63,847 bases of DNA. It comes from an uncultured Bdellovibrionales bacterium (GTDB lineage: Bacteria > Patescibacteriota > Minisyncoccia > Moranbacterales > UBA1568). The DNA lies in the NCBI GenBank assembly GCA_964420045.1, contig CAYQPQ010000003.1, positions 1 to 63,847 on the forward strand. Direction: 5' to 3'. Made by a program: the position numbers and the translations under genes. Positions 182 to 63,291 of this stretch are shown piece after piece. Within the stretch, counting starts at the first letter, position 1. Every line of letters starts with the position of its first letter. The notes beneath the pieces are model-generated. The model had not been told where the DNA came from and ran no database searches. It saw nothing but the letters and a program-made list of their open reading frames with translations.

Positions 182-198
182 CCGTGAACCCAAAAACT
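182..198. repeat. IS terminal inverted repeat (CCGTGAACCCAAAAACT)
   Basis: Exact reverse complement of 1094-1110 (17/17). Confidence 0.9.
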
Positions 199-3302: not shown

Positions 3303-3312
3303 GGTAGCAAAA

Positions 3313-5226: not shown

Positions 5227-5348
5227 GCTTCTAGCATACAGGAATTGTTTTTGGTTTGCAAAAATATATGGCTCGTAGAGGGGCTTTCCGCTTTACGGAC
5301 GGGGCATGAGAGTGATAGAATGTCTCATATCGCTTGTGAGGAATTTCT

Positions 5349-7109: not shown

Positions 7110-7121
7110 CACGGGACACAC

Positions 7122-8792: not shown

Positions 8793-8832
8793 TGACTGCA
8801 GACGTGTGAAGCCGCTTCTTTTGTTGATAAGA

Positions 8833-10428: not shown

Positions 10429-10509
10429 AAACATGAGAGATTGTGTAACGAGTTGAACTGTTGGGAATCTTTTGAGGAGAAATCCATACTATATCGGACG
10501 GGGTAACCT

Positions 10510-11220
10510 ATGACAAAGATGCGAGAGAAAAATATGATATTCACCGCTGACGATTTTGGCATTAGTCAAAAGGCGGACGAGAGGATTCTGAAACTCGCCG
10601 AAGCGGGAGTACTTGATCGTGTTGCCGTTATGACTCGGGGAACAGCAACAGCATCATCGCTCGAACGATTGGCGAAATCGGGCGTCAAGATTGATCTTCA
10701 CGCGGAAATTCGCGACGATATCGATCCGAATCGAACGCTCAAAGCGGGCGCAGCGGGGAGAATTTTTATTTTTGTGAAAAATTTTCTGTTTGGTGAGAAT
10801 CGCGTGTCCCGCGTAGCTGAGCGATGGGATGCGCAAATACGAGACTTTCAATCGATATTTGGCAGATACCCCGACGGACTGAATTCTCATGAACATACGC
10901 ATTTTTTTCCGCCGTATTTTCGAGCACTTCTTTCTCTGGCAAAGAAATACGATATTCCATTTGTTCGATTCGGAAAGAAATCGTTTCCGGGGAATACGTC
11001 GGTATCGCGTATTCTCAATATGCTCCGCGTGGCGGACCGACAGGAATTTTCTCGGTCGGGACTTGCTTCATCCGACATAATGATCAGTTTTGACTGGATA
11101 GGATCGCTTGAACCGCTTGAAAAATATCCGGAAAGCATGACAATAGAGATTCTGTTTCATCCGGAAAGAGACGAGGAAATGGAATTTCTCGAAAAGAATT
11201 TCCTCTCGAGCTCAATATAA
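10510..11220 (+). CDS. YdjC/ChbG/NaxD-family carbohydrate deacetylase
   Basis: 236 aa. N-terminal FTADDFGISQKADERILKLAEAGVLDRVAVM and HEHTHFFP blocks are typical of the YdjC superfamily. Embedded between GT-C paralogues 3 and 4. Confidence 0.75.
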   Translation: MTKMREKNMIFTADDFGISQKADERILKLAEAGVLDRVAVMTRGTATASSLERLAKSGVKIDLHAEIRDDIDPNRTLKAGAAGRIFIFVKNFLFGENRVSRVAERWDAQIRDFQSIFGRYPDGLNSHEHTHFFPPYFRALLSLAKKYDIPFVRFGKKSFPGNTSVSRILNMLRVADRQEFSRSGLASSDIMISFDWIGSLEPLEKYPESMTIEILFHPERDEEMEFLEKNFLSSSI

Positions 11221-11281
11221 CGAGATTTTGGTTAGGCATTTGAGAGTGAGACAGGTTTTTCCGAACACTTTATATTTCTCT

Positions 11282-12898: not shown

Positions 12899-14829
12899 AT
12901 CGGACTCTCTACAAGTATTTTAGTATGAAGATGCCTTTGAAATTTCGATGGAGTCTGAATGTGACTATTGGGCTGCTTCTTGGTGTTGTAGTAGTGATGA
13001 ATCTTTCATTGGGAATCCCACGACTCGCCAAGTTTTCTGCGATTGATGAACGTCTCTGGACGTATGATCGGATACCGCAATTTTGGCGCGCGATTGAGAA
13101 GGGAGAATGGAAAAAGACCGATATCAACGATAAGCCAGGCATCACAGTTGCTCTTACTTCAGGTGTGGGATTGTTGTTCTCCAATCCGAAGTCGACCGAA
13201 ATGCTTCGCACTACATCGAAAAATGTGAATGATCTTGCGAAAATATACCAAGTAGATACTTCGTTTCGTCTGCCAATCTATCTCTTTACTCTCTGTATGA
13301 TGCCGGTATTCTTTTGGCTCATACGTCGGCTTTTTGAGAGTAATCGGATTGCATTTTTTGCGACTGCATTCATATTTCTCTCCCCGATTCTTCTCGGTAT
13401 ATCACTTATCGTGAATCCAGATTCTCTCTTGTGGATATTTCTTCCGCTCTCCTTGGTGAGCTTTCTCATTTTTCTTAAAGAGGAAGATTGGAAGTGTGCT
13501 GTTATGAGTGGAGGTTTTCTGGGTTTTGCACTACTTACGAAATATGTTTCCACGATCCTTTTTCCATTTCTCTTCCTTCTGGTGTTTCTGGTTCAGGTTT
13601 TTCCATTACGAAAATATGTTTCGAGTGTGGATGAAAAATCAATGTTGGCGAGGTCTCTCCGAATCGGATTGATGGGATATCTTTGCACTGTATTTGTTGC
13701 ATGTCTTACGGTTTTTGGGTTTTATCCGGTTGTTTGGGTGTCGTTCAATACGCTGCTTCAGACGACTATTTTGAGCCGTCCGATGGTGTCAGTGGGAACG
13801 CCTCTTGCAGTGTTGATTGCTGGAACATTCATTGATGTGGTTCTCTTGAAGGCGTATCTTTCTCAGAAAATCGTACAGGTGCTTTCTCGACATGAATCCT
13901 TATGCCGAAGAGTGCTTGCAGGAGGGTTTCTTGCGTCAATCCTCTTTGTTTTCACAAATGTGTATCTTCACATGAGGTGGATCAATTTTCCCGCTCTCCT
14001 CGCGTCACCGAAAGCACCAGGTACGTGGAGTGTGATCGAGCTTGTTTCCGGCGCCTTTACGGGTCTCTACGGACTTCTGTTTGGGATAACTCCCATTGTG
14101 TCTCTCTTTTTCTTTCTGACAGTTATTTCCTTACTTGGCATTCGGTCTTTTTCTTTCAGGGAAGAGCATCGATCGATAGTTCTTATCTTGCTTGTATTTA
14201 TGGGAGCCTACTATGCTGCCTCTGCTGTGAATTTTGTTGATGCGACGGTTCGGTATCAAATTTCCCTCTATCCGCTCGCATTCATTGTGGCGGCTGTCGG
14301 AGCGCTTCAGTGTTTTTTGTGGATTCGCGCGAAGCTTCGCGTGTCTCTTCTTGTGTTTTCATGCGGTATCCTTTTGTGCTCTCTGGCAAGTCTTCTGCTT
14401 ATTCGCCCGTTCTATTTCTCGTATGCCTCCGTGCTCTTGCCGAAGCAATATGTGCTCAATATGAAGGGTATGGGGGATGGGAGTTATGAAGCATCTCAAT
14501 ATTTGAACAGTCTCCCGAATGCGCAGAGTTTGTCCGTGTGGACTGATGAAGCGGCTGTCTGCGATCATTTTGTTGGACACTGTATCTCGAGTGTCAAACA
14601 AAAAAATGTGGAGGGACAGAACTTCGATTATTTCGTTATTTCTCTTGGAAGAAGACAGAAATCAATAGGGTTTTCCTCTCTTCGGCAGGTAACTGATCCT
14701 GATTTTCTCTGGGCGATGAGGCAGTATGATTCCGAAAACTTTCGGGGACATCAAATATCCATTGGAGGACGAGCGGCAAACTTTATAAAGATAATTCGGA
14801 ACGAATCGCAGTCGCGGGATGCTTTGTAG
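12895..14829 (+). CDS. Polytopic GT-C fold glycosyltransferase (GT39/ArnT/PMT-like), family B copy b
   Basis: 644 aa. SAIDERLWTYDRIPQFWRAIEKGEWKKTDINDKPGIT parallels 3313-5226, with the same TM layout and C-terminal domain (MGDGSYEASQYLNSLPN versus MGDGSWEAADFLNHLPN). Confidence 0.7.
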   Translation: MNRTLYKYFSMKMPLKFRWSLNVTIGLLLGVVVVMNLSLGIPRLAKFSAIDERLWTYDRIPQFWRAIEKGEWKKTDINDKPGITVALTSGVGLLFSNPKSTEMLRTTSKNVNDLAKIYQVDTSFRLPIYLFTLCMMPVFFWLIRRLFESNRIAFFATAFIFLSPILLGISLIVNPDSLLWIFLPLSLVSFLIFLKEEDWKCAVMSGGFLGFALLTKYVSTILFPFLFLLVFLVQVFPLRKYVSSVDEKSMLARSLRIGLMGYLCTVFVACLTVFGFYPVVWVSFNTLLQTTILSRPMVSVGTPLAVLIAGTFIDVVLLKAYLSQKIVQVLSRHESLCRRVLAGGFLASILFVFTNVYLHMRWINFPALLASPKAPGTWSVIELVSGAFTGLYGLLFGITPIVSLFFFLTVISLLGIRSFSFREEHRSIVLILLVFMGAYYAASAVNFVDATVRYQISLYPLAFIVAAVGALQCFLWIRAKLRVSLLVFSCGILLCSLASLLLIRPFYFSYASVLLPKQYVLNMKGMGDGSYEASQYLNSLPNAQSLSVWTDEAAVCDHFVGHCISSVKQKNVEGQNFDYFVISLGRRQKSIGFSSLRQVTDPDFLWAMRQYDSENFRGHQISIGGRAANFIKIIRNESQSRDAL

Positions 14830-14875
14830 TCAATATTGGACTAGGAAGGTAGAAATAAACAAGAGAAAACGTCGT

Positions 14876-16378
14876 ATGAAAAGGATCTATTTTGTTTATA
14901 TGGGTATTCCGCTGCTTTTCGTAGGGGTGATTTTTTTTCGTGAAATTTATTTCGGGAAGCAGGAAGTGAAGAATATGATCGCCCTCGAGAGAATCTCAAC
15001 AGATCATGAGGAATCACCATTTCCAGAAATGACCTCACTTACAGAACCTTCGTTTCCTGACAGGGTATGCAGTATAGCTGATTTCGGTGCTATTGGAGAT
15101 GGGGACACCATGAATACGCGCGCGTTTGCTACAGCCATCAATGAATGTGCGAATCATGGCGGTGGAAAGGTACTGGTACCAAAAGGGAAATGGCTCACCG
15201 GACCGGTAGCACTGAAAGATAACATATGGCTCTTTCTCGAGAAAGACGCAGAAATTCTCTTTAGTATTCAGAAATCGGACTATCTTCCCGTGGTTCGTTC
15301 GCGATTTGAAGGAGTTGAATACTTCGGTTACTCCTCGCCGCTTTCGGCAAGAAACGCAGAGAATATTGCCATAACCGGCGAAGGAACAATCAATGGGCAA
15401 GCGGAGAAATCATGGTGGACATCTGTTGATGATCCAGAGGTGGCAGTTTCTCTGGTTGAGCTGTACCGAATGGGGCAAGACGGAGATCCGGTTGAGAATC
15501 GTGTTTTTGGCGAAGGGAGGGGACTTCGCCCGGCCTTTGTTGAGCTCTTCGAGTGTCACACCGTGCTTATTGATGGTGTGACATTTCTGAATGGTCCCAT
15601 GTGGACGATTCATCCGCTCTATAGCGATACGGTCTCCATTCGGAATATTGTGGTTCAAACACATGACGGTCGAAACACGGACGGAATAGTTGTTGATTCT
15701 TCGCAAAATGTTTCCATCAAAGACTCTCGGTTTGCTACCGGTGATGACGCTATTGCTATCAAGTCTGGTCGGGACAATGACGGTATGCGTATTGGAAGAC
15801 CGTCGAAAAATGTTCTCATCCGGAACTGTGTTGTTGAGGATGCTCACGCGGCTATTGCCATTGGAAGTGAAGTATCCGGCGGCATACACGATATCTTTGT
15901 CGATACGATACGGGTGAAAAATGCCGACTTTGGCATTCGTATGAAATCAAGTCCGGGTCGAGGAGCTTCGGTTCATACTATTCGAATCCGTAATATGGAT
16001 ATCGAGAATGCGAGGATCGCCGCTCTTGAATTGGATCAAATGACCGGAGAAGCGGTCTCGGTCGGAGTGGCGCTCACAGACTTTCATGATATTCACATTG
16101 AAAATGTACGGTGTGGTTGGACGAGGAAGCCTCTGCGATTTAACGGATCGGCAGAACAACCTCCGTATGACATAACACTTCGTGATTTCACGATATCAGC
16201 AAGCGGCACGGCGTCTCTGGAGAATGTTCAGGACGTATTGATCAAGAATTTCACACTAACATCTTCGCGAAAAGGCAAGGATCCAGGCATGGATATTGTC
16301 GGGAGTCACCATGTCATCCTTGATCAAACCAATCTTCCGCAGTCTCGGATACTGTGCAAAGATGGATGTGTCTACTGA
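14876..16378 (+). CDS. Membrane-anchored glycoside hydrolase family 28 protein (exo-polygalacturonase-like), copy b
   Basis: ATG 14876 (MKRIYFVYMGIPLLFVGVIFF, a TM segment); the listed ORF starts at 14819. GH28 blocks: SIADFGAIGDG, GGGKVLVPKGKW, RNTDGIVVDS, ATGDDAIAIKSGRDNDG, AIGSEVSGG, IRMKSSPGRG. Confidence 0.8.
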   Translation: MKRIYFVYMGIPLLFVGVIFFREIYFGKQEVKNMIALERISTDHEESPFPEMTSLTEPSFPDRVCSIADFGAIGDGDTMNTRAFATAINECANHGGGKVLVPKGKWLTGPVALKDNIWLFLEKDAEILFSIQKSDYLPVVRSRFEGVEYFGYSSPLSARNAENIAITGEGTINGQAEKSWWTSVDDPEVAVSLVELYRMGQDGDPVENRVFGEGRGLRPAFVELFECHTVLIDGVTFLNGPMWTIHPLYSDTVSIRNIVVQTHDGRNTDGIVVDSSQNVSIKDSRFATGDDAIAIKSGRDNDGMRIGRPSKNVLIRNCVVEDAHAAIAIGSEVSGGIHDIFVDTIRVKNADFGIRMKSSPGRGASVHTIRIRNMDIENARIAALELDQMTGEAVSVGVALTDFHDIHIENVRCGWTRKPLRFNGSAEQPPYDITLRDFTISASGTASLENVQDVLIKNFTLTSSRKGKDPGMDIVGSHHVILDQTNLPQSRILCKDGCVY

Positions 16379-25217: not shown

Positions 25218-26816
25218 ATGTACGATATCATTATAAAAAACGGGGCGGTGCTCGATGGGACGGGCGCGCGCGAGTTTGCGAGCGATATCGGTATCAAAGA
25301 GGGAATAATTGCGACGGTTGGTAATTTGAATGGCGAACACGCCGAGAGAGTTATTGATGCCAAAGGTTTGTATGTCGCGCCCGGTTTTGTGGATATCAAT
25401 AATCATTCCGATACGTATTGGCAGATATTTCTGAATCCCGATCTCGAGAGTCTCGTCCGGCAGGGGATTACGACAATTGTTGGCGGGAATTGCGGATCGT
25501 CTCTCGCGCCGCTCGCCGATCAATCCATGCTGCAGTCTATTCAGAAATGGACGGATATTCGGAATCTCAACCTCAACTGGCTGTCGACGAAAGAATTTCT
25601 TGAGGAAGTGGAGCGACGCGAACTCTCGGTGAATTTCGCGACGCTTTTGGGACACGGAACGCTTCGACGCGGATTTGTGCACGATGAGTCGAGACCGCTT
25701 CGAGCCGCGGAGCTTGCCGGTATGGAAAAGATGCTCAAGCAATCAATGCGCGAAGGATCACTTGGCATGTCATTGGGACTCGCCTATGTGCACGGACGGC
25801 ACGCAACGGAACACGAGCTTTCGACACTCGCAGCGGTAGTCGGGAAGTATGGCGGATTTTGTACGGCACACCTTCGAAGTGAAGGGAAAGAGCTCTCGGA
25901 GGCGGTTGCCGAGGCGATTGCTATGGCGAAAAGCTCCGGAGTGCGTCTCCATATATCGCATCTCAAGGCGGTTGGGAAACGATATTGGGAGTTTATGGAG
26001 CGCGCACTCTATCTTCTGGATGCGTCCGACTCAGAAGGCGTTGACGTTTCGTTTGATATATACCCCTATCGATCGACCGCGACGGTGCTCTACACGATCC
26101 TTCCTACGTGGATAACCGACGGCGGAAAGAAAATGATGTTTGAGCGGTTGCGCAATCCCGCTATTCGAGCCGAAGCGATTCGCGATCTCAAAGAGGAACA
26201 TATCGACTACTCTTCGGCGGTACTTTCGCTCTCGTCGCTCAACAAAATGATTACGCGCACAAATGTGCTCGAGATGGCGCATGCACAGGGCAAGACGCCG
26301 GAAGATGTCATTTTCGATGTGCTTCTCGCATCGGATGATCGCGCGATCGTGTCGCTCGACGCGCTTTCGGAAGAAAATATCGAGAAGGGACTCCGACATC
26401 CGTTTTCCATTGTGAGTACCAATGGCACGGGATACCCGGCGAATTACTCGGGAACGGGCGAGTCTATTCATCCGCGCTGCTTTGGAACATTCCCGCGTGT
26501 GCTCTTCCGCTATGTTCGCGAGCGAAAACTGCTCGGTTGGGAAGAAGCGATTCACAAGATGACCGGAAAACCAGCGGCAAAGGCTGGTCTGCAGAAGCGC
26601 GGCACAATTGCAATTGGGAATCATGCCGATATCGTCGTGATCAATCCGAATGAAGTCGAGGATCATGCGACATCGGAGAATCCCTATCAGTATCCGTCGG
26701 GCATTCCGTTTGTTGTTGTCAACGGAAAGATAGCAGTCGATGCCGGAGAGTATATGGGAAACCGAGCCGGAACCGTTCTGCGCCGTGAAGGCAGCTTTCT
26801 GGAACGATTTTGGTAG
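25218..26816 (+). CDS. Amidohydrolase of the D-aminoacylase (N-acyl-D-amino-acid deacylase) family
   Basis: MYDIIIKNGAVLDGTG...VIDAKGLYVAPGFVDINNHSD, GGNCGSS, TAHLRSEG, LHISHLK, ADIVVINP. The first His of the usual HxH motif is Asn here. Confidence 0.75.
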   Translation: MYDIIIKNGAVLDGTGAREFASDIGIKEGIIATVGNLNGEHAERVIDAKGLYVAPGFVDINNHSDTYWQIFLNPDLESLVRQGITTIVGGNCGSSLAPLADQSMLQSIQKWTDIRNLNLNWLSTKEFLEEVERRELSVNFATLLGHGTLRRGFVHDESRPLRAAELAGMEKMLKQSMREGSLGMSLGLAYVHGRHATEHELSTLAAVVGKYGGFCTAHLRSEGKELSEAVAEAIAMAKSSGVRLHISHLKAVGKRYWEFMERALYLLDASDSEGVDVSFDIYPYRSTATVLYTILPTWITDGGKKMMFERLRNPAIRAEAIRDLKEEHIDYSSAVLSLSSLNKMITRTNVLEMAHAQGKTPEDVIFDVLLASDDRAIVSLDALSEENIEKGLRHPFSIVSTNGTGYPANYSGTGESIHPRCFGTFPRVLFRYVRERKLLGWEEAIHKMTGKPAAKAGLQKRGTIAIGNHADIVVINPNEVEDHATSENPYQYPSGIPFVVVNGKIAVDAGEYMGNRAGTVLRREGSFLERFW

Positions 26817-26847: not shown

Positions 26848-26879
26848 AAGGGTCTTTCATTTGACCCTTTTGTCATTTT
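26848..26879 (+). terminator. Rho-independent terminator after the aminoacylase gene
   Basis: Stem AAGGGTC (26848-26854) / GACCCTT (26863-26869) followed by TTGTCATTTT. Confidence 0.55.
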
Positions 26880-26950
26880 GAAGCGCCAGCTTGATTCGAG
26901 GGTGCTTTTGGGGGTATGGTTGAGATGTTGGCGATGCTCTTATTTGCGCT

Positions 26951-29479
26951 ATGGCTGATCAACCGAAGGCGACGAAATTCGTGTTTGATTCGTATCATTT
27001 TTCTTTGCACGAAAAGAAAGCGTCTTTTATGTATCGAATGGAGTTTGCGAATCGAGAGCCGATGCTTTTTACCGACACGCTTGTCTTTCCGGGATTGCCG
27101 GAAACGATACGCGCTTCGGAAGCGTTGATTGATGCGATGTTGCGTGGGATGCATCTCGCGCTCGGTGTGAGCTATTACAAGCTCTCGTGTCCGAAGACGA
27201 TTGAAGTGACACATGCGCTTTCGGAGAAGCAGGCGGCGTTCTGGAACGATGTGTATCGAAAAGGGCTTGGAGAATTTTTCTTTCGGAACAATATTGATTC
27301 GCGCGGAAGAATTGCGTTTCCATTTGATAAAGATATTTCATCGGTGAGCTTTTCGATTGACGTGGAAGACCGGGCGCTTCTTGGTATTGGTGGGGGCAAA
27401 GATTCCATTGTTGCCGGCGAACTTCTCAACGAGATGAATTATGAAACGAGCGCATTTATCTTTGAAACCGGCGATCCGGTTCCGTTGGTTGAGCACGTTG
27501 TTGGTGCGATGGAACTCTCGACTGTAAAGGTGCGTCACTTGCTTGATCCGCAGGTTTTCCAGGCATACGACGGGTCGTTCAATGGACACGTGCCGTTTTC
27601 GGCGATGGTGGCGTGGGTGGGGTATTTGGCGGCCGCATTGTATGGCTATCGATATGTTGTCGTGGGAAATGAACGAAGCAGCAATATCGGCAATGTTGAG
27701 TACTTGGGCGAAACAGTGAATCATCAATGGAGCAAGTCGCTGGAATTCGAGACGATGTTTCAGAAGTATGCCCGGGAATTCTTGTCGCCGGACATCACCT
27801 ATTTTTCACTCCTTCGCCCGTTCTATGAGATTCGAGTTGCTGAGACGTTTTCCCGGTATGAGAAATATTTTTCGTCTTTCTCGAGTTGCAACAGGAGCTT
27901 CAAAGTGCATCAGAAGCGTTCGGAAACACTCTGGTGTGGCGAGTGTGCGAAGTGTGCCTTCGTCTTTCTGCTCCTCTCTGCATTTCTCAAAAAAGAAACA
28001 CTTCTCCATATTTTTGGAAAGAACCTTCTGGACGACGAGGCGCTTCAATCGCTCTTTGGAGATATATTGGGATTCGGCTCGATGAAACCGTTTGACTGCG
28101 TGGGAACATTTGAAGAGGCGCGTGCAGCGCTTTTCCTCTCCGAGAAAAACTTCGGTGAAAGTCGTGTTTCGAAAGAGTTTCTTGCGCGAATCGAACATTC
28201 GGAAGAACTGGTTCGTGAAGTGACGCGCTTCTATTCGGCGCCGACTATCCCTGCACACTTTCTTTTTGTAGGAGCAAAGAAAGTGCTGATTCTCGGATAT
28301 GGCGTCGAAGGAAAAGAAACGGAGCGGTACTTGAAGCAATCTCTGCCTCATTTGGTACTCGGGATCGCGGACAGGAGCGCGGATGCCGGATATCTTGACC
28401 GTCAGAACGAATACGATATAGCCATAAAAACGCCAGGCATTCCAAAACGACTCGTAACAATTCCCTATACTACGGCGACCAATATATTTTTCTCTCGTAT
28501 AAAAAATCTCACCATTGGTGTAACGGGTACAAAGGGGAAGAGCACGACCGCCTCTCTCATTCATTCCATTTTGCGTGCGGCGAAACGGAAGTCACTGCTT
28601 TTGGGAAATATCGGCCAGCCGCTTCTCTCGGCATTCTCCGCTCCGACTGATCCAGATACGGTTATTGTTGCGGAGCTGTCGAGCTATCAGCTCGAAGATA
28701 TCGAGTATTCGCCGCATATCGCCGTCATGCTCAATCTCTTTTCCGATCACATGGATTATCATGGCGGCGTTGCAGCGTATCACGACGCGAAACGCAATAT
28801 ACTTCGATTTCAGAATGAGCGCGACTTTGTTGTCTACAAGAGTCGAGATGCAAGACTGTCTGAGTGGGCACAAGAAGGGAAGGCAAACGCTGTTCCTTTC
28901 GATACAGGAGAGGAAGAAGTGTATGAATCCACGTTGCACGGATTGCACAATGCGGACAATGTTCGGGCAGCGGTTGCCGTTGCGAAACTTCTCAATATTT
29001 CCGAGGAAGCGATTCGAGAAGGTGTGCGAACATTTGTGCCACTTCCGCATCGTCTCGAACGTATCGGAGAGTTTCTCGGTATCACATTTTACGATGATGC
29101 GATTTCGACAACGCCGGAGTCGACCGAGGCGGCACTTGAAGCGATACCGAACGTCTCGACAATTTTCTTGGGTGGCGAAGATCGGGGCTATGATTTTCAC
29201 GGATTGGAGCGGTCGATTCGCAAGTATGGCGTGAAGAATATCGTCTTGTTTCCAGAGAGCGGGAAGCGAATGCTTACCTCGACCGATGGTCTCACTGTGC
29301 TTGAAACAAGAAGTATGGAGGAGGCAGTGTGTTTTGCTTATGAGCAAACGCCGACCGGTTCGGTATGTCTCCTTTCAACCGCTTCGCCAAGTTATTCTCT
29401 CTGGAAAAATTTTGAAGAGAAGGGCGATGAGTTTCAACGCTGTGTGAGAAAATTCGGCGCGCAAGTTGTTCCGAATTGA
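26951..29479 (+). CDS. murD: Fusion protein: N-terminal PP-loop ATP-pyrophosphatase-like domain (MurL-like?) plus C-terminal UDP-MurNAc-L-Ala--glutamate ligase (MurD family)
   Basis: 842 aa. aa 147-152 GGGKDS (27389-27406) is a PP-loop-type motif, and CGECAKCAF lies later in the N-terminal half. From about aa 430 the MurD pattern appears: KKVLILGYGVEGKE...IAIKTPGIP...IGVTGTKGKSTT...DHMDYHG...PHRLE. Confidence 0.75.
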   Translation: MADQPKATKFVFDSYHFSLHEKKASFMYRMEFANREPMLFTDTLVFPGLPETIRASEALIDAMLRGMHLALGVSYYKLSCPKTIEVTHALSEKQAAFWNDVYRKGLGEFFFRNNIDSRGRIAFPFDKDISSVSFSIDVEDRALLGIGGGKDSIVAGELLNEMNYETSAFIFETGDPVPLVEHVVGAMELSTVKVRHLLDPQVFQAYDGSFNGHVPFSAMVAWVGYLAAALYGYRYVVVGNERSSNIGNVEYLGETVNHQWSKSLEFETMFQKYAREFLSPDITYFSLLRPFYEIRVAETFSRYEKYFSSFSSCNRSFKVHQKRSETLWCGECAKCAFVFLLLSAFLKKETLLHIFGKNLLDDEALQSLFGDILGFGSMKPFDCVGTFEEARAALFLSEKNFGESRVSKEFLARIEHSEELVREVTRFYSAPTIPAHFLFVGAKKVLILGYGVEGKETERYLKQSLPHLVLGIADRSADAGYLDRQNEYDIAIKTPGIPKRLVTIPYTTATNIFFSRIKNLTIGVTGTKGKSTTASLIHSILRAAKRKSLLLGNIGQPLLSAFSAPTDPDTVIVAELSSYQLEDIEYSPHIAVMLNLFSDHMDYHGGVAAYHDAKRNILRFQNERDFVVYKSRDARLSEWAQEGKANAVPFDTGEEEVYESTLHGLHNADNVRAAVAVAKLLNISEEAIREGVRTFVPLPHRLERIGEFLGITFYDDAISTTPESTEAALEAIPNVSTIFLGGEDRGYDFHGLERSIRKYGVKNIVLFPESGKRMLTSTDGLTVLETRSMEEAVCFAYEQTPTGSVCLLSTASPSYSLWKNFEEKGDEFQRCVRKFGAQVVPN

Positions 29480-34543: not shown

Positions 34544-36925
34544 ATGTTGCAACACTCCTATCCGGGGCTTTCGACACGTGAAGCTGAAGCGGCATTGGAG
34601 CGCTACGGTATCAACGATGTTTCCGAACAGCGAACGGGATTTGTGCGAAAGTTCCTCGCGCCACTCTACTCGCCAATATCGATCATGTTGCTCGGTGCGG
34701 CGACGCTTTCGAGACTCAATGGACGGTATTTCGACTTTTACTTCATACTCGCGCTTTACGCGGTAAATTACTCCATACAAAAATGGCAGGAATTCAAAGC
34801 GGATCGTGCCATTCAGGAATTGCAGAATCGATTGTCCTTTGACGTGTGGACACTCCGAGAAGGGAAATGGGTGTTCGTGAATGCAAAATATCTCGTCCCC
34901 GGCGATCATATCCGATTGGGTTTGGGAAGTATTATTCCGGCAGACGGCACGGTGATTGAGGCGAAGAATCTTTCCGTAAATGAAGCGGTTCTGACCGGAG
35001 AATCGCTCCCCAAAGAAAAGCATCCGGGAAGCGCAATTCTTTCCGGATCTTTTGTCGCGACGGGAAGTTTCGAGGCGGAAATAACTGCGACCGGTCGACA
35101 TACCGCTTTTGGAAAAACGATCTTCTCCATCGAGCAGCCGACTGAGAAAAGCATACTCGAGAAAGATATTCTGAGTATCACAAGATTTCTCATGGTGGTA
35201 AGCATGCTTGCCGTTGCAATACTGACCATCGTTTTTCTCTTTCGCGGCGAATCGCTCAATAATCTCGTCTTGCTCGACTTGAGTCTTATCATTGCCGGTA
35301 TCCCCATTGCGCTTCCGGCGGTTATGGCGATTATTCTCAGTATCGGTGCTTCGGGGCTCGCCAAAAAACTCGTCATCGTGCGAAGACTTTCCGCGCTTCA
35401 GGACCTTGCCAATGTGAATCTCCTTTTGACGGATAAAACGGGAACGCTCACGAAGAATGAGATTAGCGTTGCCAATGTCATTTCCTACCGAAATGGTTTG
35501 AGTACGGACGATGTCATAGAGCTTGCGCACCTGGCAACCTCAACTGATACTCCGGATGCTATTGATCTCGCTGTGACGAAACGGTTCCAAAAGACCGGTC
35601 GATCATCCGAAGGAAGCGCTGTGTTAACTTTCATCCCGTATGATTCGGAACGAAAACACTCAACCGCACATATACAAAAAGGAGATGAGAAGCTGCTTAT
35701 CAGCCTTGGCGCTCCGCAAGTCATACGCGCACTTGATGAATTTGCACTTCCGGAAATGGCGGAGCGATTCGACAATGATATTCGTGAAGCGGCGCAAAAT
35801 GGCTTTCGAGTCCTCGCTGTTGCCACAAAGAAAAACAGCGAGGAAGAATCTCACATGGAAATTGCCGGTGTACTTTTCTTGGCGGATCCGCTTGATGAAC
35901 GGTCAAAGGAAACCATGCATTTTATGCGAGAAAACGGCATAGCCGTTAAAATGTTGACGGGAGACAATTGCGTTATCGCGGAGAGAATCGCTCAAGAACT
36001 TGAGTTGCCCGGTGAGGTTTTTCCGGCAGAAGAGGCGCGGAAACTCTTCAGTGATGTCGAAGCCATGCATCGAAAATTCAATGCAATTGCCGCCTTTGCC
36101 GAGATTCTCCCGAAAGATAAATATGAAATTGTAAAAGCATTCCAATCACAGTATATCGTCGCATCAACCGGTGATGGCATCAATGATCTCCCGGCACTCA
36201 AGGTGGCCAATGTCGGCATTGCTGTTTCCGGAGCGGTCAGTGCACTCAAGAGCATGGCCGATATTGTTCTCTTGGGACAAGGATTGTCGGTAATACAAGA
36301 CGCTATCTTGGAATCCCGGAAAATCTTCGTGCGGCTCTATAATTATTCCGTCTATCGAATTTCCGAGAGTTTTCGCCTTATCATCACCATCCTTATCCTA
36401 GGCGTTTGGTACGGATTTTATCCGCTCGTGCCACTCCAACTCATCCTACTCGCATTCTTGAATGACATTCCCATTATTTCTCTGGCGTTTGATCGGGTGA
36501 AAATTCTTGCCAAGCCGTCGGAAGTGAACGTTCGGGAGCGCCTTATTCTGAGTCTTCTCTTCGGATCCGTCGGGGTGATAAACAGCATCTTACTGTTTTT
36601 TCTCATGACCAACGTATTTCACCTTTCGCTTCCGGTGATTCAAACGATATTTTTCCTCAAACTCACCGTATCCGGACACGCGCTCGTATTCGTGGCCCAT
36701 ACCAAAGAACGATGGTACCGTTTCTTCCCCAGTCGCGCGGTCATACTTGCCACGGTTACGACGCAGATACTTGCTACGGCGCTTGCTGTTTCGGGATTTT
36801 TGATGCCGGCAAGCATTTCGCTTTCGACGGCATTCCTGGTGTGGCTGTGGGCGTTCTTCTGGATGCAAATCAGCGAGTATACGAAAGACGTACAAACGCG
36901 ATATTTCCAAAATCATTCGAAATAA
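34544..36925 (+). CDS. P-type ATPase, closest in pattern to type III (plasma-membrane H+/Mg2+ type)
   Basis: GLSTREAEAALERYGINDVSE N-terminus, TGES, LLTDKTGTLTKN, MLTGDN, TGDGINDLPALKVANVGIAV. Confidence 0.8.
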   Translation: MLQHSYPGLSTREAEAALERYGINDVSEQRTGFVRKFLAPLYSPISIMLLGAATLSRLNGRYFDFYFILALYAVNYSIQKWQEFKADRAIQELQNRLSFDVWTLREGKWVFVNAKYLVPGDHIRLGLGSIIPADGTVIEAKNLSVNEAVLTGESLPKEKHPGSAILSGSFVATGSFEAEITATGRHTAFGKTIFSIEQPTEKSILEKDILSITRFLMVVSMLAVAILTIVFLFRGESLNNLVLLDLSLIIAGIPIALPAVMAIILSIGASGLAKKLVIVRRLSALQDLANVNLLLTDKTGTLTKNEISVANVISYRNGLSTDDVIELAHLATSTDTPDAIDLAVTKRFQKTGRSSEGSAVLTFIPYDSERKHSTAHIQKGDEKLLISLGAPQVIRALDEFALPEMAERFDNDIREAAQNGFRVLAVATKKNSEEESHMEIAGVLFLADPLDERSKETMHFMRENGIAVKMLTGDNCVIAERIAQELELPGEVFPAEEARKLFSDVEAMHRKFNAIAAFAEILPKDKYEIVKAFQSQYIVASTGDGINDLPALKVANVGIAVSGAVSALKSMADIVLLGQGLSVIQDAILESRKIFVRLYNYSVYRISESFRLIITILILGVWYGFYPLVPLQLILLAFLNDIPIISLAFDRVKILAKPSEVNVRERLILSLLFGSVGVINSILLFFLMTNVFHLSLPVIQTIFFLKLTVSGHALVFVAHTKERWYRFFPSRAVILATVTTQILATALAVSGFLMPASISLSTAFLVWLWAFFWMQISEYTKDVQTRYFQNHSK

Positions 36926-57664: not shown

Positions 57665-58600
57665 TCAAAACCCAACCATCTGCACTTCTTCCTGGAGACG
57701 GACATTCGCCTCGGTGCGAACCCGCTGCTTGATAAGACTCGTGAGAATAAGAATGCTTTCCGCTGTCGCCGTGCCGGTATTGATAATATAGTTCGGATGA
57801 ATATCACTTACTTTGGCGCCGCCGATTTCCTTGCCGCGCAGTCCCACATGATCAATCACCCACCCGGCAGGCAGTTTATCATCCTTCACTGGCATACCGG
57901 TATCGAGTTCGAACTCTTTACGAAGCGATGCGTCAGAGACCGTCGGATTCATAAAGAACGAGCCGGCACACAGCAAGCGTTGCGGATGCTTCATCTCGCG
58001 CGTCGCAATGGTTTCGCGCATAATATGCTCCAAATCGTCCGGCGACTGTCCGGGAACAAGCATAAGTTCCGCCGACAAGACAATCAGCTCCGGATGTTTT
58101 TTGAAGTGACTCATTCGATAAGAAAATTCGCACGCATTCTTCGGATACGTTCGAATTTCCAATGTATTGCGGTCGAGCGCGCGAACCAAGGTTACCGCCG
58201 ACGCTGTTTCCGCTCCGAATGCTCCGGCATTGCCGCGCACCGCACCACCGATCGTGCCCGGTATCCCGGCGAGCCGTTCGATACCGCCATAGCCGTGATC
58301 TCGCGCGCATTCCACTGCCGAATGAAGCGCCACTCCGGCGCCGACCCGAAGCCGCCCCTCACCAAGATCTGCAAGATCGTTCATCTCGATCTTGATCACC
58401 AGACCATCCCAACCGCTGTCCGAAAACAGCACATTGCTTCCACCTCCCAAGACAAAAACGTTCACTTTCTTTTCTTTCGCCCACTGAAGCGCCTCAATTG
58501 TATCAGCCTCGGTTTTTGCCTCGACGAAATATCGCGCCTTCCCGCCCACTCGAAACGTCGTAAGCGGATGCAAATCAATATATTCCTGCGGAGTTATCAT
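57665..58600 (-). CDS. murB: UDP-N-acetylenolpyruvoylglucosamine reductase
   Basis: HPLTTFRVGGKARYF, VFVLGGGSNVLF, AGIPGTIGGA, GSFFMNP. Confidence 0.9.
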   Translation of the reverse strand: MITPQEYIDLHPLTTFRVGGKARYFVEAKTEADTIEALQWAKEKKVNVFVLGGGSNVLFSDSGWDGLVIKIEMNDLADLGEGRLRVGAGVALHSAVECARDHGYGGIERLAGIPGTIGGAVRGNAGAFGAETASAVTLVRALDRNTLEIRTYPKNACEFSYRMSHFKKHPELIVLSAELMLVPGQSPDDLEHIMRETIATREMKHPQRLLCAGSFFMNPTVSDASLRKEFELDTGMPVKDDKLPAGWVIDHVGLRGKEIGGAKVSDIHPNYIINTGTATAESILILTSLIKQRVRTEANVRLQEEVQMVGF

Positions 58601-58679
58601 AAGGGTTTGTTCTCTAGATCTCTAGTCAAAATTCAAAAGTAACCGTCCCGGAGCAATGCTCACGCAAAAAATGAATTTC

Positions 58680-60077
58680 TCATGAAAGCACGCCCGTTCC
58701 CACACGCCACACATCGCCCGCGCCCAACGTCACCACAAGGTCATCCGGTCCCAGAGATTCCTTGAGCGTCTCGATGACCGCTTCTGGAGTCGGAATGTGC
58801 AGAGCCTGCTCGCGACGATAACGATTCATAAGCGCAACCAGGTCAGCCGAAGACACACCGCCCGCGGTCTCACGAGCACTCCCGTAAATATCGAGCACGA
58901 TCACGCGATCCGCCGCATCAAAACTCTGCGCGAAATCTTCAAGCAATGCCTTGGTTCGCGAAAACGTATGCGGATGGAAAACGGCGATAATATTCCGTGT
59001 CGGAAAAAGTTCACGAAAAGCGGCGAGCGTTGCGCGAATTTCTTCGGGATGATGTGCATAGTCATCATACACCGGTGCGCCCCGATATTCCCCCACTCGT
59101 TCAAAGCGCCGCGCCGTCCCGAAGAAATGTTCCATACCCCGACGAATATCGTCCACATCAAACTTGAGCGCGAGAAGCAATGCCGCAACGGCCGCTGCAT
59201 TCTGCGCATTGTGCTTTCCTGCAAGACGGAGACGAAACAATCCAAGATCGTGTTCTCCTTCAAAAAGATGGAACTGTTGGTGAAAGGATCCCTCAAGCAA
59301 CGGTTCGTAATCAACGATACGAATATCGTTCTCGGGCAGAAATCCATACGAACGCTTCTGCGCCCGCGAAACTGACACCACATCGGCGACCGATGCGCTG
59401 TCTCCGCAAAAAATCAGGAATCCGTGCGGCGGAATACGCCGAAGAAGCGCACGAAATGTTTCGGCGTATGATTGCATATCCGGGAAAAAGTCCGGGTGAT
59501 CCCAGTCGAGACTCGTCAGAATGACGCTCCATGGTTCATAATGTCGCAGTTTGTTCTGATATTCATCCGCTTCCAACACGAAGTATTTTCCCGATCCCAA
59601 GAGCGCATTACCGCCCCAACTTGAAATGGAGCTCCCTACCAGCGCGAGCGGATCGGCATGAAGTGCCTTCAGTGTTTCCGCAAGCAGGGCGCTCGTCGTC
59701 GTTTTGCCATGCGTGCCGGAGACGAGAATGGAGAGTCGCTCTCGAGTCAACTCACCGACCGCTTCTGGATAACTCATCACACAAATATCAGACGTGGCGG
59801 CGCGAGCATAGGCGGCAGCGAGCTCCTCATTATTCTCGGGCGTATAGGCCGTCGAATAGATAATACAATCAGCGTCATCCGGGATATTCTTTGGAGAGAA
59901 CCCCTCCGTAAAACGAATACCGCGCCGGCGAAGCACCTCGTCGGTAAAAAAATGCTCGTGTGTATCAGAGCCACCGACGAGTAGTGAGCGACCGGAAAGA
60001 ATCTCCGCGAGCGCCGCCATACCGGCGCCCTTGATTCCGATCATATGCACCCGTATCACATCGGCAAAAGATTTCAT
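58680..60077 (-). CDS. murC: UDP-N-acetylmuramate--L-alanine ligase
   Basis: VHMIGIKGAGMAALAEIL, VSGTHGKTTT, DDYAHHP. Confidence 0.92.
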   Translation of the reverse strand: MKSFADVIRVHMIGIKGAGMAALAEILSGRSLLVGGSDTHEHFFTDEVLRRRGIRFTEGFSPKNIPDDADCIIYSTAYTPENNEELAAAYARAATSDICVMSYPEAVGELTRERLSILVSGTHGKTTTSALLAETLKALHADPLALVGSSISSWGGNALLGSGKYFVLEADEYQNKLRHYEPWSVILTSLDWDHPDFFPDMQSYAETFRALLRRIPPHGFLIFCGDSASVADVVSVSRAQKRSYGFLPENDIRIVDYEPLLEGSFHQQFHLFEGEHDLGLFRLRLAGKHNAQNAAAVAALLLALKFDVDDIRRGMEHFFGTARRFERVGEYRGAPVYDDYAHHPEEIRATLAAFRELFPTRNIIAVFHPHTFSRTKALLEDFAQSFDAADRVIVLDIYGSARETAGGVSSADLVALMNRYRREQALHIPTPEAVIETLKESLGPDDLVVTLGAGDVWRVGTGVLS

Positions 60078-60113
60078 AGGCAGTGTATCGGCGCGTATAT
60101 CGATATATTTTCA

Positions 60114-61295
60114 CTATCGCCGGAAGAAAGAAATCAATCGATCAAAAGCCGTGACGCGAGCTTCTCGATCGTGAATCAGTGTCGCCACAGATTCAGCAAT
60201 ACGCGCCGACGCATCAGCATGATAGAATCCACGGATCGAAGCGGCCATCTTTTGACGCAACGCCGCATCATCCAAGAGCTCTTCTATTTTGCCCGCGAGA
60301 AGATTTTCACCAAGGTTACTCTCCTCCAAAACGAGAGCGCCGCCGGCACGCGCAATTTCATAGGCATTCATGCGTTGTTCATCATTAGCCGCCGAAGGAA
60401 GCGGGATGAGTATCGCCGGCTTCCCCACCGCTGCAATTTCGGAAATGGTATTCGCCCCCGCCCGCGAAACAATCAAATCCGCCAGTGCAAATGCGTCGGA
60501 AAGTTCGCCCGTATCAAAGAAGGGCGCCATATGAATTTTCCCGGACGCATCACCAAGTGCATGCTCCTCAAAACGCGAACGCGTTTCGTCATAGTTCGCT
60601 TGCCCCGTCTGATGAATCACAAAGAATCGCTCGAGAAGCCTCGGGAGAATGCGCACTATCGCCCGATTAATCGCTTGCGATCCCAAGCTCCCGCCAAGCA
60701 CCAGAAGCACCAGCTTCCCCGGCGGACATCCGAACCGCCCACGCGCACGGTCAACATTACCCATAAGAAGCCCTTCGCGTATCGGATTCCCCGTAATAGC
60801 CACTCGAGAAGGCTCGAAGAACTTGGTTGCCGACGGATATGCAACAGCGATGCGATCCGCAAATTTCCCCATGATGCGATTGGCAACACCCGGCGTCGCA
60901 TCGGAATCCTGCGTGAGAATCGGAATCCGATAGACCCATGCCGCAAAAACAACCGGCACTGCCGCATAGGCACCTTTGGAAAAGACCGCGTCCGGCATGT
61001 GCCGGTATAAATAGTAGAGCGACTGGAAGAATCCGGCGATATTCCTGAACACATCGCTCACATTTCGCAGATCAAAATAGCGCCGCCACTTGCCGCTCAA
61101 AATGCGAATTGATGCGATACCCGCCTCGCTAATGATCTTCTGCTCCAATTCGCCCGCCGGACCAAAATATAAAAGCTCAGTATTCTCGCCAAGCTGCGCA
61201 CGAATCTCTTTGGCAACCGGAATAAGCGGGAAAATGTGTCCTCCGGTCCCGCCGCCTGCGAGCACAATACGATATGTTTTGTTCATAGGATACAA
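60114..61295 (-). CDS. murG: Undecaprenyldiphospho-muramoylpentapeptide beta-N-acetylglucosaminyltransferase
   Basis: VLAGGGTGGHIFPLIPVA, VLGGSLGS, SRAGANTISE. Confidence 0.9.
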   Translation of the reverse strand: MYPMNKTYRIVLAGGGTGGHIFPLIPVAKEIRAQLGENTELLYFGPAGELEQKIISEAGIASIRILSGKWRRYFDLRNVSDVFRNIAGFFQSLYYLYRHMPDAVFSKGAYAAVPVVFAAWVYRIPILTQDSDATPGVANRIMGKFADRIAVAYPSATKFFEPSRVAITGNPIREGLLMGNVDRARGRFGCPPGKLVLLVLGGSLGSQAINRAIVRILPRLLERFFVIHQTGQANYDETRSRFEEHALGDASGKIHMAPFFDTGELSDAFALADLIVSRAGANTISEIAAVGKPAILIPLPSAANDEQRMNAYEIARAGGALVLEESNLGENLLAGKIEELLDDAALRQKMAASIRGFYHADASARIAESVATLIHDREARVTAFDRLISFFRR

Positions 61296-61302
61296 TGCTG
61301 GT

Positions 61303-62508
61303 CTAGTGTTCCTTTAGTGTAGAATCTTTCCCAATCCGTATCAAGATGCCCATAGCCGCCATAAGAAAGACAATAGAAGTTCCTCCATAGCTCACGAACG
61401 GCAACGGAATGCCTGTGAGCGGAATCAGAGCGGTTGCTGCCGCGATATTGATAAACGCCTGAAAAATGACCCACGACACGATACCCGCTGCCGCGTAGCG
61501 TCCGAAGTCATCCGGAGCCTGGCGCGCAATGCGCAATCCCTGCCACGCAATAAATACAAAAAGCGCAATCAGCAACACCGAGACGAAAAATCCCCATTCT
61601 TCGGAGAAGATGGCAAAGATGGAATCCGTCACCGGCTCCGGAAGATAATTGAACTTTTGCCGACTGAGTCCGAGTCCGAGTCCGAAGAGTCCGCCGCTTC
61701 CGATCGCAATAAGCGCCTGATTCACCTGATAACCCGCTCCCTTGGGATCGAAATCCGGATTCATAAAGACCAGAAATCGCTGCAGCCGGTAGGGCGCCAC
61801 CTTGATAAGAATCGCGAGCATCGCCATGCCAGAGAGGAACAGCCCGAAGAGATGGGAAACTTTCGCACCCGCAATAAAGTACACCGAAACGGCAATAAGA
61901 AAGATGAGCCCGAAGGTTCCCGTGTCAGGCTGCTTCATAATGAGGAAACCAACAAGGCCCAACACCACAAGGAACGGCACCAGATCCTCGATAAAGTCTC
62001 CCACCATCTTCCGATCCTTCCGCGAAAACCATGCCGCGAGATAGAGCACGAAAGCAAACTTCGCCATCTCCGACGGCTGAAAAGAGAACGCTCCGATAGA
62101 AAGCCAGCGACTCGCTCCGTATACACGATCCCCGACGCCGGGAATCAAAACCGCGATAAGCGCAAGAACCGTCACAGCAAAGAGCGGAAAAGCGAGCCGC
62201 CGCCACACGCGATAGTCAACGTATTGAAAGACAAAGAGCGCAATCAGTCCAACTCCGACCCCAAGGAGTTGCCGCTTCAAAAAGAAATAGTCGTCGCCGA
62301 ACCGCGTCTCGCCATAGAAAACGCCGGCGCTCGCAATGGTGACGAGTCCGATCACCACCAGCGCCAAAACCGAAAACAAGAGGCTGCGATTCTGAAACGA
62401 AGATGAGGAAGAATGAGAAACCGATCGCACAGAAGTGTGTATTTGTCTTGAATTAAAAGACGGCGCACAGAAACAAAAGGAGTTCTTGGCATTACGCCGG
62501 CGAAGCAT
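61303..62508 (-). CDS. ftsW: SEDS-family peptidoglycan polymerase FtsW/RodA
   Basis: Ten-TM SEDS pattern ([35 protein letters not shown]). ATG 62508 preferred; the listed ORF start 62697 lies deep inside trmD. Confidence 0.85.
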
Positions 62509-63148
62509 GCTCACGCCGCCATCGATCGATATCGGCATGATTCCCGGAAAGCAACACTTCCGGAACGCACCACTCGTTGAACACCTCCGGCTTGGTATAT
62601 TGCGGGTGTTCGAGATATCCCGGTTCGCGATGAGACTCGGTATCTGCGCTCGTCTCATTACCAAGAACGCCCGGCACGAGACGCGCCACCGCATCAACTA
62701 TCACAAGCGCTGGAAGCTCGCCACCCGTCAACACGAAGTCACCGATCGACAGTTCTTCATCCGCCATATATTCCGCCACACGCTCGTCGACTCCCTCATA
62801 ACGCCCGCAAATAAGAACGATCTGCTCATATGCCGACAATCGTCGGGCGTCTTCCTGTCGGAACGGCTTCCCTTTCGCCGAGAGCAACACGATGCGACGT
62901 GACAAATCGGCATGCGCCACTTTCAAAGATTCGACCGCCTTCCAAATCGGTTCCACTTTCATCACCATGCCCGCCCCGCCGCCATAGGGCGTATCGTCCG
63001 TCTTGTGATGCTTGTCGGTCGCAAAGTCACGAATATTGTGCGCCGCAATCGAGATATGTCCCGCCTCCTGCGCGCGTTTCAAAATAGACTCGCCGAGATA
63101 GGAGTCGAATATATATGGAAAAAGAGTAAGGATATCAAAACGCATCAT
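62492..63148 (-). CDS. trmD: tRNA (guanine37-N1)-methyltransferase
   Basis: [40 protein letters not shown] 63148 preferred over 63199. Confidence 0.9.
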
Positions 63149-63291
63149 CCTGGTTATAATAGCACGCCCCAAACAAGCAAAAAAGTAACGCGACATCAAG
63201 AATTCAGCTCAACAAAAAAAACGAGCCGCCGATTCTCCTTATTATTCGGAAAACAGGCGGCATAATAAGGAGGCTGCACTACAAAGCCCGC

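Follow-up and report, generated by a model that had tools for sequence, protein, structure and literature searches.

The window analysed here is a stretch of 63,847 nucleotides (contig CAYQPQ010000003.1, assembly GCA_964420045.1) from an uncultured bacterium of the Moranbacterales, within the Candidate Phyla Radiation (CPR). It carries an uninterrupted open reading frame with an ATG start (26951-29479, plus strand, from the list of open reading frames) that codes for 842 amino acids. The N-terminal half of the product (residues 1-435, ~435 aa) is a homolog of MurL, the epimerase of an alternative route to peptidoglycan D-glutamate (D-Glu), and the C-terminal half (residues 436-842, ~407 aa) is a homolog of the MurD-type ligases; the homology of both halves is essentially certain. 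Judging from sequence comparison, it is probable that this one protein performs L-glutamate (L-Glu) ligation followed by ATP-dependent epimerisation to D-Glu. The first-pass annotation of the window had described this 842-aa frame, a division into ~430 and ~410 aa and the motifs GGGKDS (residues 147-152), CGECAKC (329-335), GVTGTKGKSTT (523-533), DHMDYHG (599-605) and PHRLE (699-703), all of which were found in place. A chance reading frame is ruled out by >2,600 homologs in a protein search, the best 120 of which are all full length (811-885 aa). The full-length AlphaFold2 model has a predicted local distance difference test score (pLDDT) of 89.1 and a predicted template modelling score (pTM) of 0.86, the latter suggesting a fixed arrangement of the two modules. 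The features of the gene are as follows.

26951..29479, plus strand: whole fusion gene, MurL-like epimerase module followed by MurD2-like ligase module (open reading frame list, NCBIfam MurL and murD matches, AlphaFold2 model)
26951..27355, plus strand: MurL_N subdomain, residues ~1-135, beta-sheet and helices with conserved LG[IV]SYYK and GLGEFxxRN (PF26299 on homologs, conservation, secondary structure; motifs also in Xanthomonas MurL)
27365..27985, plus strand: PP-loop ATP-pyrophosphatase core with QueC-like fold, residues ~139-345 (Foldseek; range estimated from secondary structure and match lengths)
27389..27406, plus strand: PP-loop motif GGGKDS, residues 147-152, putative ATP pyrophosphate-binding loop (G148, G149, K150, D151 and S152 invariant in both homolog alignments)
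27887..27955, plus strand: cysteine cluster C313 (SCNR) and C329-x2-C332-x2-C335 (WCGECAKC), putative QueC-like zinc site (all four invariant)
28085..28105, plus strand: KPFDCVG, residues 379-385, with the fifth conserved cysteine C383 as candidate catalytic residue (K379, P380, F381, C383, V384 and G385 invariant; D382 >=90%)
28256..28510, plus strand: MurD N-terminal UDP-binding Rossmann-like domain, residues ~436-520, right after P434 (Foldseek; ILGYGxEGK conserved)
28517..28549, plus strand: Mur-ligase ATP P-loop GVTGTKGKSTT, residues 523-533, with K530 equivalent to E. coli K115 (Mur_ligase_M; K530 in 120/120 homologs)
28745..28765, plus strand: DHMDYHG, residues 599-605, with D599 as discriminator 1 and H600 as catalytic H183 (homolog alignment)
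29093..29116, plus strand: DDAISTTP, residues 715-722, with I718 at the position of E. coli K319 (homolog and MurD comparison)
29171..29197, plus strand: GGEDRGYDF, residues 741-749, with R745 as discriminator 2 (homolog alignment)
29381..29395, plus strand: ASPSY, residues 811-815, Glu-binding loop with P813 and Y815 as discriminators 3 and 4 (homolog alignment)

Residues 1-435 matched the NCBIfam model MurL_Xanthmoales (NF041275) over model positions 7-394 of 447 with 352 bits (E=3.5e-105), and were 38% identical over 371 residues (E=2e-76) to the RefSeq-annotated MurL of Xanthomonas sacchari, whose record with murL and an adjacent murD came from a tblastn search of the plasmid collection. 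In the opposite direction, Xanthomonas MurL aligned end to end with the profile of CPR N-domains (positions 4-414 of 434, 341 bits), and the two proteins have in common the motifs LG[IV]SYYK, GLGEFxxRN, GGGKDS, NGH[VI]P, NHQWSK, SSCNR, WCGxCxKC and KPF[DE]CVG. A Pfam scan of the 842-aa query reported Mur_ligase domains and nothing for residues 1-435; MurL_N (PF26299) and MurL_epimerase_C (PF26298) are precomputed on homologs 96%, 79% and 77% identical to it and on all 120 listed. MurL domains are already modelled in domain databases and the fusion is implicit in these precomputed annotations. The X. sacchari record itself (NZ_CP010410.1, 508,653 bp, labelled 'plasmid unnamed') holds murL, a murD(2) annotated as D-glutamate ligase and a gene for a bifunctional aspartate kinase/diaminopimelate decarboxylase, genes with the appearance of core functions of a chromosome. 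The record probably represents a chromid or a piece of the chromosome and not an ordinary plasmid.

As a PDB sequence search returned no solved relative of the N-terminal half, structure prediction and Foldseek were used. The AlphaFold2 model of residues 1-436 (pLDDT 90.2, pTM 0.90) gave as best PDB matches the QueC-like Cap9 (9nto_B, E=1.7e-4, target template modelling (TM) score 0.70) and Bacillus subtilis QueC (3bl5, E=3.7e-4, TM 0.63), followed by TtuA, MnmA, NAD synthetase (NadE) and argininosuccinate synthase, with probabilities of 0.97-1.0 for this whole group. The match to QueC and to Cap9, a protein of the cyclic-oligonucleotide-based anti-phage signalling system (CBASS), covers the core at residues ~139-345 with a probability of 1.0, although identity is only 12-18%, and MurL is longer at both ends, by an N-terminal domain of ~135 aa and by a helical domain of ~90 aa at the C-terminus. 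GGGKDS lies between a predicted strand (139-145) and helix (150-161), the expected spot of a PP-loop, and is identical in Xanthomonas MurL (IGGGKDS). The domain thus has the SGGxDS-type loop, at the first strand-to-helix turn of an adenine-nucleotide alpha-hydrolase fold, that marks the PP-loop ATP pyrophosphatases, with Gly in place of Ser as first motif residue. The early call of a PP-loop was right, as the fold of MurL itself, and the suspected kinship to MurL extends over the full length; between MurL and the tRNA-modifying or queuosine enzymes the sequence favours MurL, the QueC-type proteins being distant structural relatives of the core.

QueC adenylates a substrate carboxylate. Both QueC and the N-terminal half have a glycine-rich PP-loop followed by Asp-Ser and a C-x2-C-x2-C motif after the nucleotide-binding core (CGECAKC, nt 27935-27955), and they differ in outcome, epimerisation and hydrolysis for MurL against amide or nitrile formation. 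C313, C329, C332 and C335 are invariant across the CPR proteins, Xanthomonas MurL and the Pseudonocardia homologs described below; the cluster presumably resembles the four-Cys zinc site of QueC, and the models suggest that it is probably a zinc site as well. Candidates for inversion at C-alpha include the invariant C383 (in KPFDCVG, KPFECVG in Xanthomonas MurL), H258 and K262, or an oxazolone-type intermediate. The fold fits the chemistry reported for MurL, which needs one ATP, forms AMP and works in the L to D direction only (PMC8788868, PMC5808125). AMP formation would follow from a PP-loop enzyme that adenylates the alpha-carboxylate of Glu and releases pyrophosphate (PPi).

The C-terminal half has the three-domain fold of MurD. 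It matched Pfam Mur_ligase_M (E=1.2e-21) and, as best PDB sequence, Streptococcus agalactiae MurD (E ~1e-57), and Foldseek aligned ~445 columns of the full-length model with whole MurD structures across all three domains (target TM up to 0.77). The fold, the P-loop, the carbamylated-Lys position and the catalytic His, with K530, E575, H600 and K614 conserved, place it in the MurD branch of the Mur ligase family. After correction of a one-residue numbering offset, E. coli MurD K115, N138, E157, H183, K198, R302, D317, T321, S415 and F422 were mapped to K530, N553, E575, H600, K614, R701, D716, T720, S814 and F821; all of these catalytic and contact residues are kept in the window protein and conserved in 119-120 of the 120 homologs. 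The contacts checked for ATP, Mg and UDP-N-acetylmuramoyl-L-Ala (UDP-MurNAc-L-Ala) are those of canonical E. coli MurD, from which the window protein differs at Lys319 (Ile), Lys348 (Arg) and Ala414 (Pro) and in being fused to MurL.

These differences fall at positions tied to the stereochemistry of the incoming glutamate. E. coli MurD and Xanthomonas oryzae MurD2 differ at D182/E197, K348/R358, A414/P433 and L416/F435, the double change E197D/R358K turns X. oryzae MurD2 into a D-Glu ligase, and K319T lets E. coli MurD admit L-Glu (PMC8788868). Given in the order E. coli MurD, X. oryzae MurD2, X. sacchari MurD2, the window protein and its relatives compare as follows.

D182, E197, E206: window D599; Glu in 102 and Asp in 18 of 120 homologs; Glu in 71 and Asp in 10 of 81 GTDB loci
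K348, R358, R367: window R745; Arg in 120/120 homologs and 81/81 loci
A414, P433, P443: window P813; Pro in 120/120 homologs and 77/81 loci
L416, F435, F445: window Y815; Tyr in 119 and Phe in 1 of 120 homologs; Tyr or Phe in 78/81 loci
K319, none given in the review, I339: window I718; Ile in 115/120 homologs and 76/81 loci

The window protein is MurD2-like at three of the four published discriminators (R745, P813 and Y815) and MurD-like at D599. X. sacchari MurD2 (with I339 in DSISTTP) matches the CPR majority in the local motifs FPEH, ISTTP, DRG and PSF, the fusion ligase itself having ISTTP, DRG and PS[FY] in common with it. The five canonical D-Glu MurDs of solved structure that were compared (E. 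coli, S. agalactiae, Acinetobacter baumannii, Pseudomonas aeruginosa and Thermotoga maritima) all keep the Lys of K319 and the Ala of A414. The streptococcal MurD has an aromatic residue at 416 and Arg at 348, so neither is unique to MurD2, and loop 812-819 is of low confidence in the full-length model. Since the half is ~30% identical to both MurD2 and MurD (~29-30% to X. sacchari MurD2) and overall similarity barely separates them, the assignment rests on the signature residues, on linkage to MurL and on profile scores, the CPR ligase-domain profile giving 234 bits for Xanthomonas MurD2 against 193.5 for E. coli MurD. On these residues and scores the ligase half probably belongs with MurD2, as a predicted L-Glu ligase.

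To determine how widely the arrangement occurs, the N-domain alignment was scanned against one genome per GTDB species, and at least 594 confirmed species-level genomes were found to carry this MurL type. The best 80 of these are all CPR-type loci and bear Parcubacteria-type, Microgenomates-type and Peregrini- or Peribacteria names together with some doubtful automatic labels. A search of the N-domain profile against 1.84 billion cluster representatives (clusters at 50% identity) retrieved 3,244 clusters with E<=1e-3, of which 1,509 reach E<=1e-30; in the top 150, ~27 are of fusion length and most others are stand-alone proteins of ~440-460 aa. The best 120 homologs of the window protein come from metagenome-assembled genomes labelled Moran-, Kaiser-, Pace- and Parcubacteria, and most are annotated "MurD (D-glutamate ligase)" and a few as epimerase. 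Among complete genomes, the nearest match lies on CP064989.1, a Moraniibacteriota chromosome of 1.09 Mb (77% identity), where the order galT, tpi, fba, gap, amidohydrolase, fusion, malic enzyme and trxB is kept.

Gene architecture was counted at 83 loci with 10-kb flanks, 81 of them complete: the two modules form a single uninterrupted frame in 57, lie as separate murL then murD genes in 24 and are cut by contig ends in two. At all 81 complete loci the MurL domain is thus fused to, or directly before, this type of ligase, in the same order of murL then murD2 as in Xanthomonas. In the split loci the murL stop and the murD start overlap or lie a few bases apart, and murL ends and murD begins at the fusion junction, where residue P434 is invariant. 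The gene ftsW follows immediately downstream in 28 loci and mraY lies upstream in at least seven, so the fusion or pair fills the canonical murD slot of the division and cell wall (dcw) cluster, as in L044 and L003, which read mraY-fusion-ftsW-murG-murC-murB. A large clade of the CPR has the fusion as its usual form, and the genes of the route, whether fused or side by side, prove to be the rule in much of the CPR.

A neighbour-joining tree of the MurL domains, with Xanthomonas and Pseudonocardia as root and without support values, places all 58 fused domains in one clade that holds no split form, with the split forms basal. The topology points to one fusion event in an ancestral murL-murD2 pair whose genes overlapped. 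As murL and murD lie adjacent and overlapping in other CPR lineages and in Xanthomonas, a one-base error could join them, and an assembly or frameshift artefact was considered on this ground. The same uninterrupted frame of 811-885 aa nevertheless recurs in the 57 independent loci and in 120/120 best homolog clusters, the junction proline is invariant, the fused forms make up one clade and confidence in the full-length model stays high over the junction, all of which leave an artefact hardly credible.

Several loci deserve separate mention. On a 962-kb contig (L004) the fusion lies apart from the dcw genes, with a gene of the M14 carboxypeptidase family (7147-7944, minus strand) divergently adjacent and a FemAB-family gene ~6.5 kb downstream. 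CPR-type murL-murD also occurs on contigs labelled uncultured Gammaproteobacteria, Candidatus Saccharibacteria, Weeksellaceae and Omnitrophota (L007, L012, L014, L016, L022, L056-L058, L069 and others); these labels are probably automatic or mis-binned, and taxon names in this family need care. A MurL-like gene that stands alone, annotated hypothetical and 31-32% identical to the N-terminal half of the window protein, occurs on three Pseudonocardia plasmids; its product reaches 257 bits against the MurL profile of the CPR and keeps the PP-loop and Cys motifs. At the one such locus examined (L086, Pseudonocardia alni plasmid pPaSha1, NZ_CP052772.1, 4959-6359) no Mur ligase is adjacent, and the protein may be an enzyme of the MurL fold that acts on another substrate.

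Elsewhere in the window the following genes were located.

25218..26816, plus strand: D-aminoacylase or N-acyl-D-glutamate deacylase homolog, 532 aa, upstream neighbour of the fusion (PDB 1m7j, E=3.7e-68; 3gip, E=7.5e-65)
57665..63199, minus strand: trmD-ftsW-murG-murC-murB block without murD (NCBIfam above cutoff for ftsW, murG, murC and murB; TrmD by eye)
61303-62697, minus strand: ftsW (NCBIfam, above cutoff)
60114-61295, minus strand: murG (NCBIfam, above cutoff)
58680-60077, minus strand: murC (NCBIfam, above cutoff)
57665-58600, minus strand: murB (NCBIfam, above cutoff)
3313-5226, minus strand: PMT/PMT_2 paralog
5349-7109, 7122-8792, 8527-10428, 11228-12898 and 12895-14829, plus strand: five further PMT/PMT_2 paralogs

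It had been noticed at first pass that murD is missing from the ftsW-murG-murC-murB block. The block is real and on the minus strand, and the gene upstream of ftsW has a TrmD-like translation (by eye) and is not a MurD. By tblastn, the 64-kb window holds no second MurD-type ligase and no mraY, murE, murF or ddl, so that the cell-wall genes are dispersed. No MurI-like sequence was found by tblastn in the window or in the 1.31 Mb made up of the window and the CPR flanks, and neither an Asp_Glu_race domain nor a class-IV aminotransferase was seen among the window proteins scanned.

A number of observations weigh against a MurL-MurD2 enzyme in this organism. The N-terminal half misses the 700-bit equivalog cutoff of NF041275, a model named for and trained on Xanthomonadales, so that a lower score is to be expected for a member of a distant phylum. 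The C-terminal half, on the other hand, passes the NCBIfam murD equivalog for D-Glu ligases (TIGR01087, residues 481-834, 258 bits, cutoff 212). Asp stands at D599 where X. oryzae MurD2 has Glu197, E197D alone changed the stereospecificity of that enzyme (PMC8788868), and the combination of Asp/Thr with Arg also occurs in streptococcal D-Glu ligases. Glutamate racemase activity has been reported for Ca. Saccharimonas aalborgensis, according to a title cited in PMC11974145, so that, as far as that title goes, MurI is not absent from all CPR bacteria. The zinc site and channelling between the modules are, moreover, suggested by models.

Taken together, the two model scores and D599 would also suit an ordinary D-Glu-adding MurD fed by a racemase or transaminase encoded elsewhere, the murI search having covered the window and CPR flanks, with the PP-loop module doing other chemistry on the same alpha-carboxylate, such as amidation to iso-glutamine, in the manner of other PP-loop amidotransferases, or a different modification that depends on adenylation. 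QueC and NAD synthetase, whose solved folds come closest, activate a carboxylate by adenylation before it reacts with ammonia. Yet the N-terminal module is homologous to Xanthomonas MurL over its full length with all conserved motifs in common, the characterised MurLs of proteobacteria and actinomycetes all epimerise, and no glutaminase or amidotransferase partner adjoins the fusion in the loci viewed. As I718 and P813 also match MurD2, unlike all the canonical MurDs compared, and this ligase type accompanies MurL at 81/81 loci, we consider a D-Glu-adding MurD with a PP-loop partner of other chemistry very unlikely.

The neighbour directly upstream raises a second alternative. A homolog of this amidohydrolase, which in the window falls below the cutoff of the NCBIfam PRK09061-type amidohydrolase, lies directly upstream of the fusion in 10/81 CPR loci, including L002 (8261-9859) and L003 (6357-7946), and in the latter it has mraY on one side and the fusion on the other, immediately before ftsW-murG-murC-murB. 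The enzyme may have a part in the salvage of D-Glu or in muropeptide recycling. The D599/R745 form of the ligase in the clade of the window could then be relaxed and take both L-Glu, which is epimerised, and D-Glu salvaged by the D-aminoacylase-like enzyme, giving de novo synthesis and salvage together. The effect of E197D on MurD2 is in keeping with this, and Streptococcus mutans MurD, with Arg at its discriminator, accepts a little L-Glu (PMC8788868). However, the Asp variant and the neighbour are uncorrelated, and a tie between them was rejected, as 9/10 loci with the neighbour have Glu at discriminator 1. A hairpin (GAAGGGTC...GACCCTT) with a T-rich run at ~26848-26882, terminator-like by eye and absent from the consensus scan listing, may also part the two genes. 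A relaxed ligase is in our view unlikely.

The amidohydrolase gene and the fusion may be transcribed separately. A promoter and terminator scan around the fusion gene gave sites no more numerous than in shuffled sequence. Among the other genes of the window, the six tandem PMT/PMT_2-family (ArnT-like) paralogs are membrane glycosyltransferases within 1617-16378, with a YdjC-like gene (10510-11220) inside the array and GH28/beta-helix proteins flanking it (1617-3302, minus strand; 14819-16378, plus strand). A P-type ATPase of 793 aa (34544-36925, plus strand) passes TIGR01647, the plasma-membrane proton-efflux ATPase model (643 bits, cutoff 615.5), which describes a type familiar chiefly from plants and fungi. 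A DDE-family transposase gene (197-1024, minus strand; DDE_Tnp_1_3, E=9e-28) is found at the window's left end.

We compared the fusion with the MurD2 and MurL pair of the X. oryzae type. Both modules are homologous over their full length, and the differences lie in one polypeptide instead of two, in Asp instead of Glu at the first discriminator and in a CPR (Moranbacteria-type) host, whereas the hosts known so far are Xanthomonadales, some Alphaproteobacteria in small number and rare actinomycetes. The gene, too, stands in the place of murD within the dcw cluster in many CPR relatives, while the X. sacchari pair adjoins lysC/lysA. Like the MurC-Ddl and MurE-MurF fusions, it unites consecutive or related steps on UDP-MurNAc-peptides, but those join two ligases and here a ligase is joined to an ATP-dependent epimerase acting on its product; the NCBIfam equivalog models of the two (NF011171, NF008896) gave weak matches to the query. 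Reviews place the pathway in "relatively few genera" and describe MurL as without known conserved domains (PMC8788868, PMC5808125), and in the literature searched no fusion, CPR distribution or PP-loop fold was described for MurL. The "glutamate epimerase" of a 2017 dead-zone metagenome paper was set aside as an unrelated enolase-superfamily L-Ala-D/L-Glu epimerase.

The MurL-MurD2 interpretation offered at first pass is thus supported in silico. In the mechanism that we propose, the C-terminal MurD2-type ligase would, by homology and its signature residues, join L-Glu to UDP-MurNAc-L-Ala at the cost of one ATP (to ADP and phosphate). The N-terminal module, by homology to characterised MurL, would bind a second ATP in its PP-loop and adenylate the alpha-carboxylate of the new terminal L-Glu, with PPi leaving. 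Inversion at the activated C-alpha and hydrolysis of the adenylate would yield the D-Glu product and AMP and make the step irreversible. The fusion probably keeps the L-Glu intermediate from diffusing away, and it would have arisen once from an adjacent murL-murD2 pair like those of the basal CPR lineages and Xanthomonas.

We also put forward, tentatively, a joint reading of all these results. MurL/MurD2 may be the main or even the sole supplier of D-Glu for peptidoglycan in most CPR bacteria of the Parcubacteria, Microgenomates and Peregrinibacteria types, with Saccharibacteria (MurI) excepted. A single ancient fusion would have given the Parcubacteria-type clade a bifunctional enzyme that channels its intermediate. 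MurL would contain zinc, have a QueC-like PP-loop fold and epimerise through an acyl-adenylate, and the proteobacterial and actinobacterial systems would be related by horizontal transfer.

The distribution found here, at least 594 species-level genomes and ~1,500 clusters at 50% identity, overturns the narrow one stated for the alternative D-Glu pathway. The public annotation "MurD (D-glutamate ligase)" hides the epimerase and is probably wrong about the substrate. No structure of MurL was found in the PDB copy searched. The QueC-like PP-loop fold and the conserved Cys cluster provide a concrete, testable mechanism for the enzyme, and the natural fusion is a ready single-gene construct for complementation of D-Glu auxotrophs and for structural work. 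The wide range bears on MurL/MurD2 as a proposed narrow-spectrum antibiotic target, and on how the genome-reduced CPR bacteria build their walls without free D-Glu.

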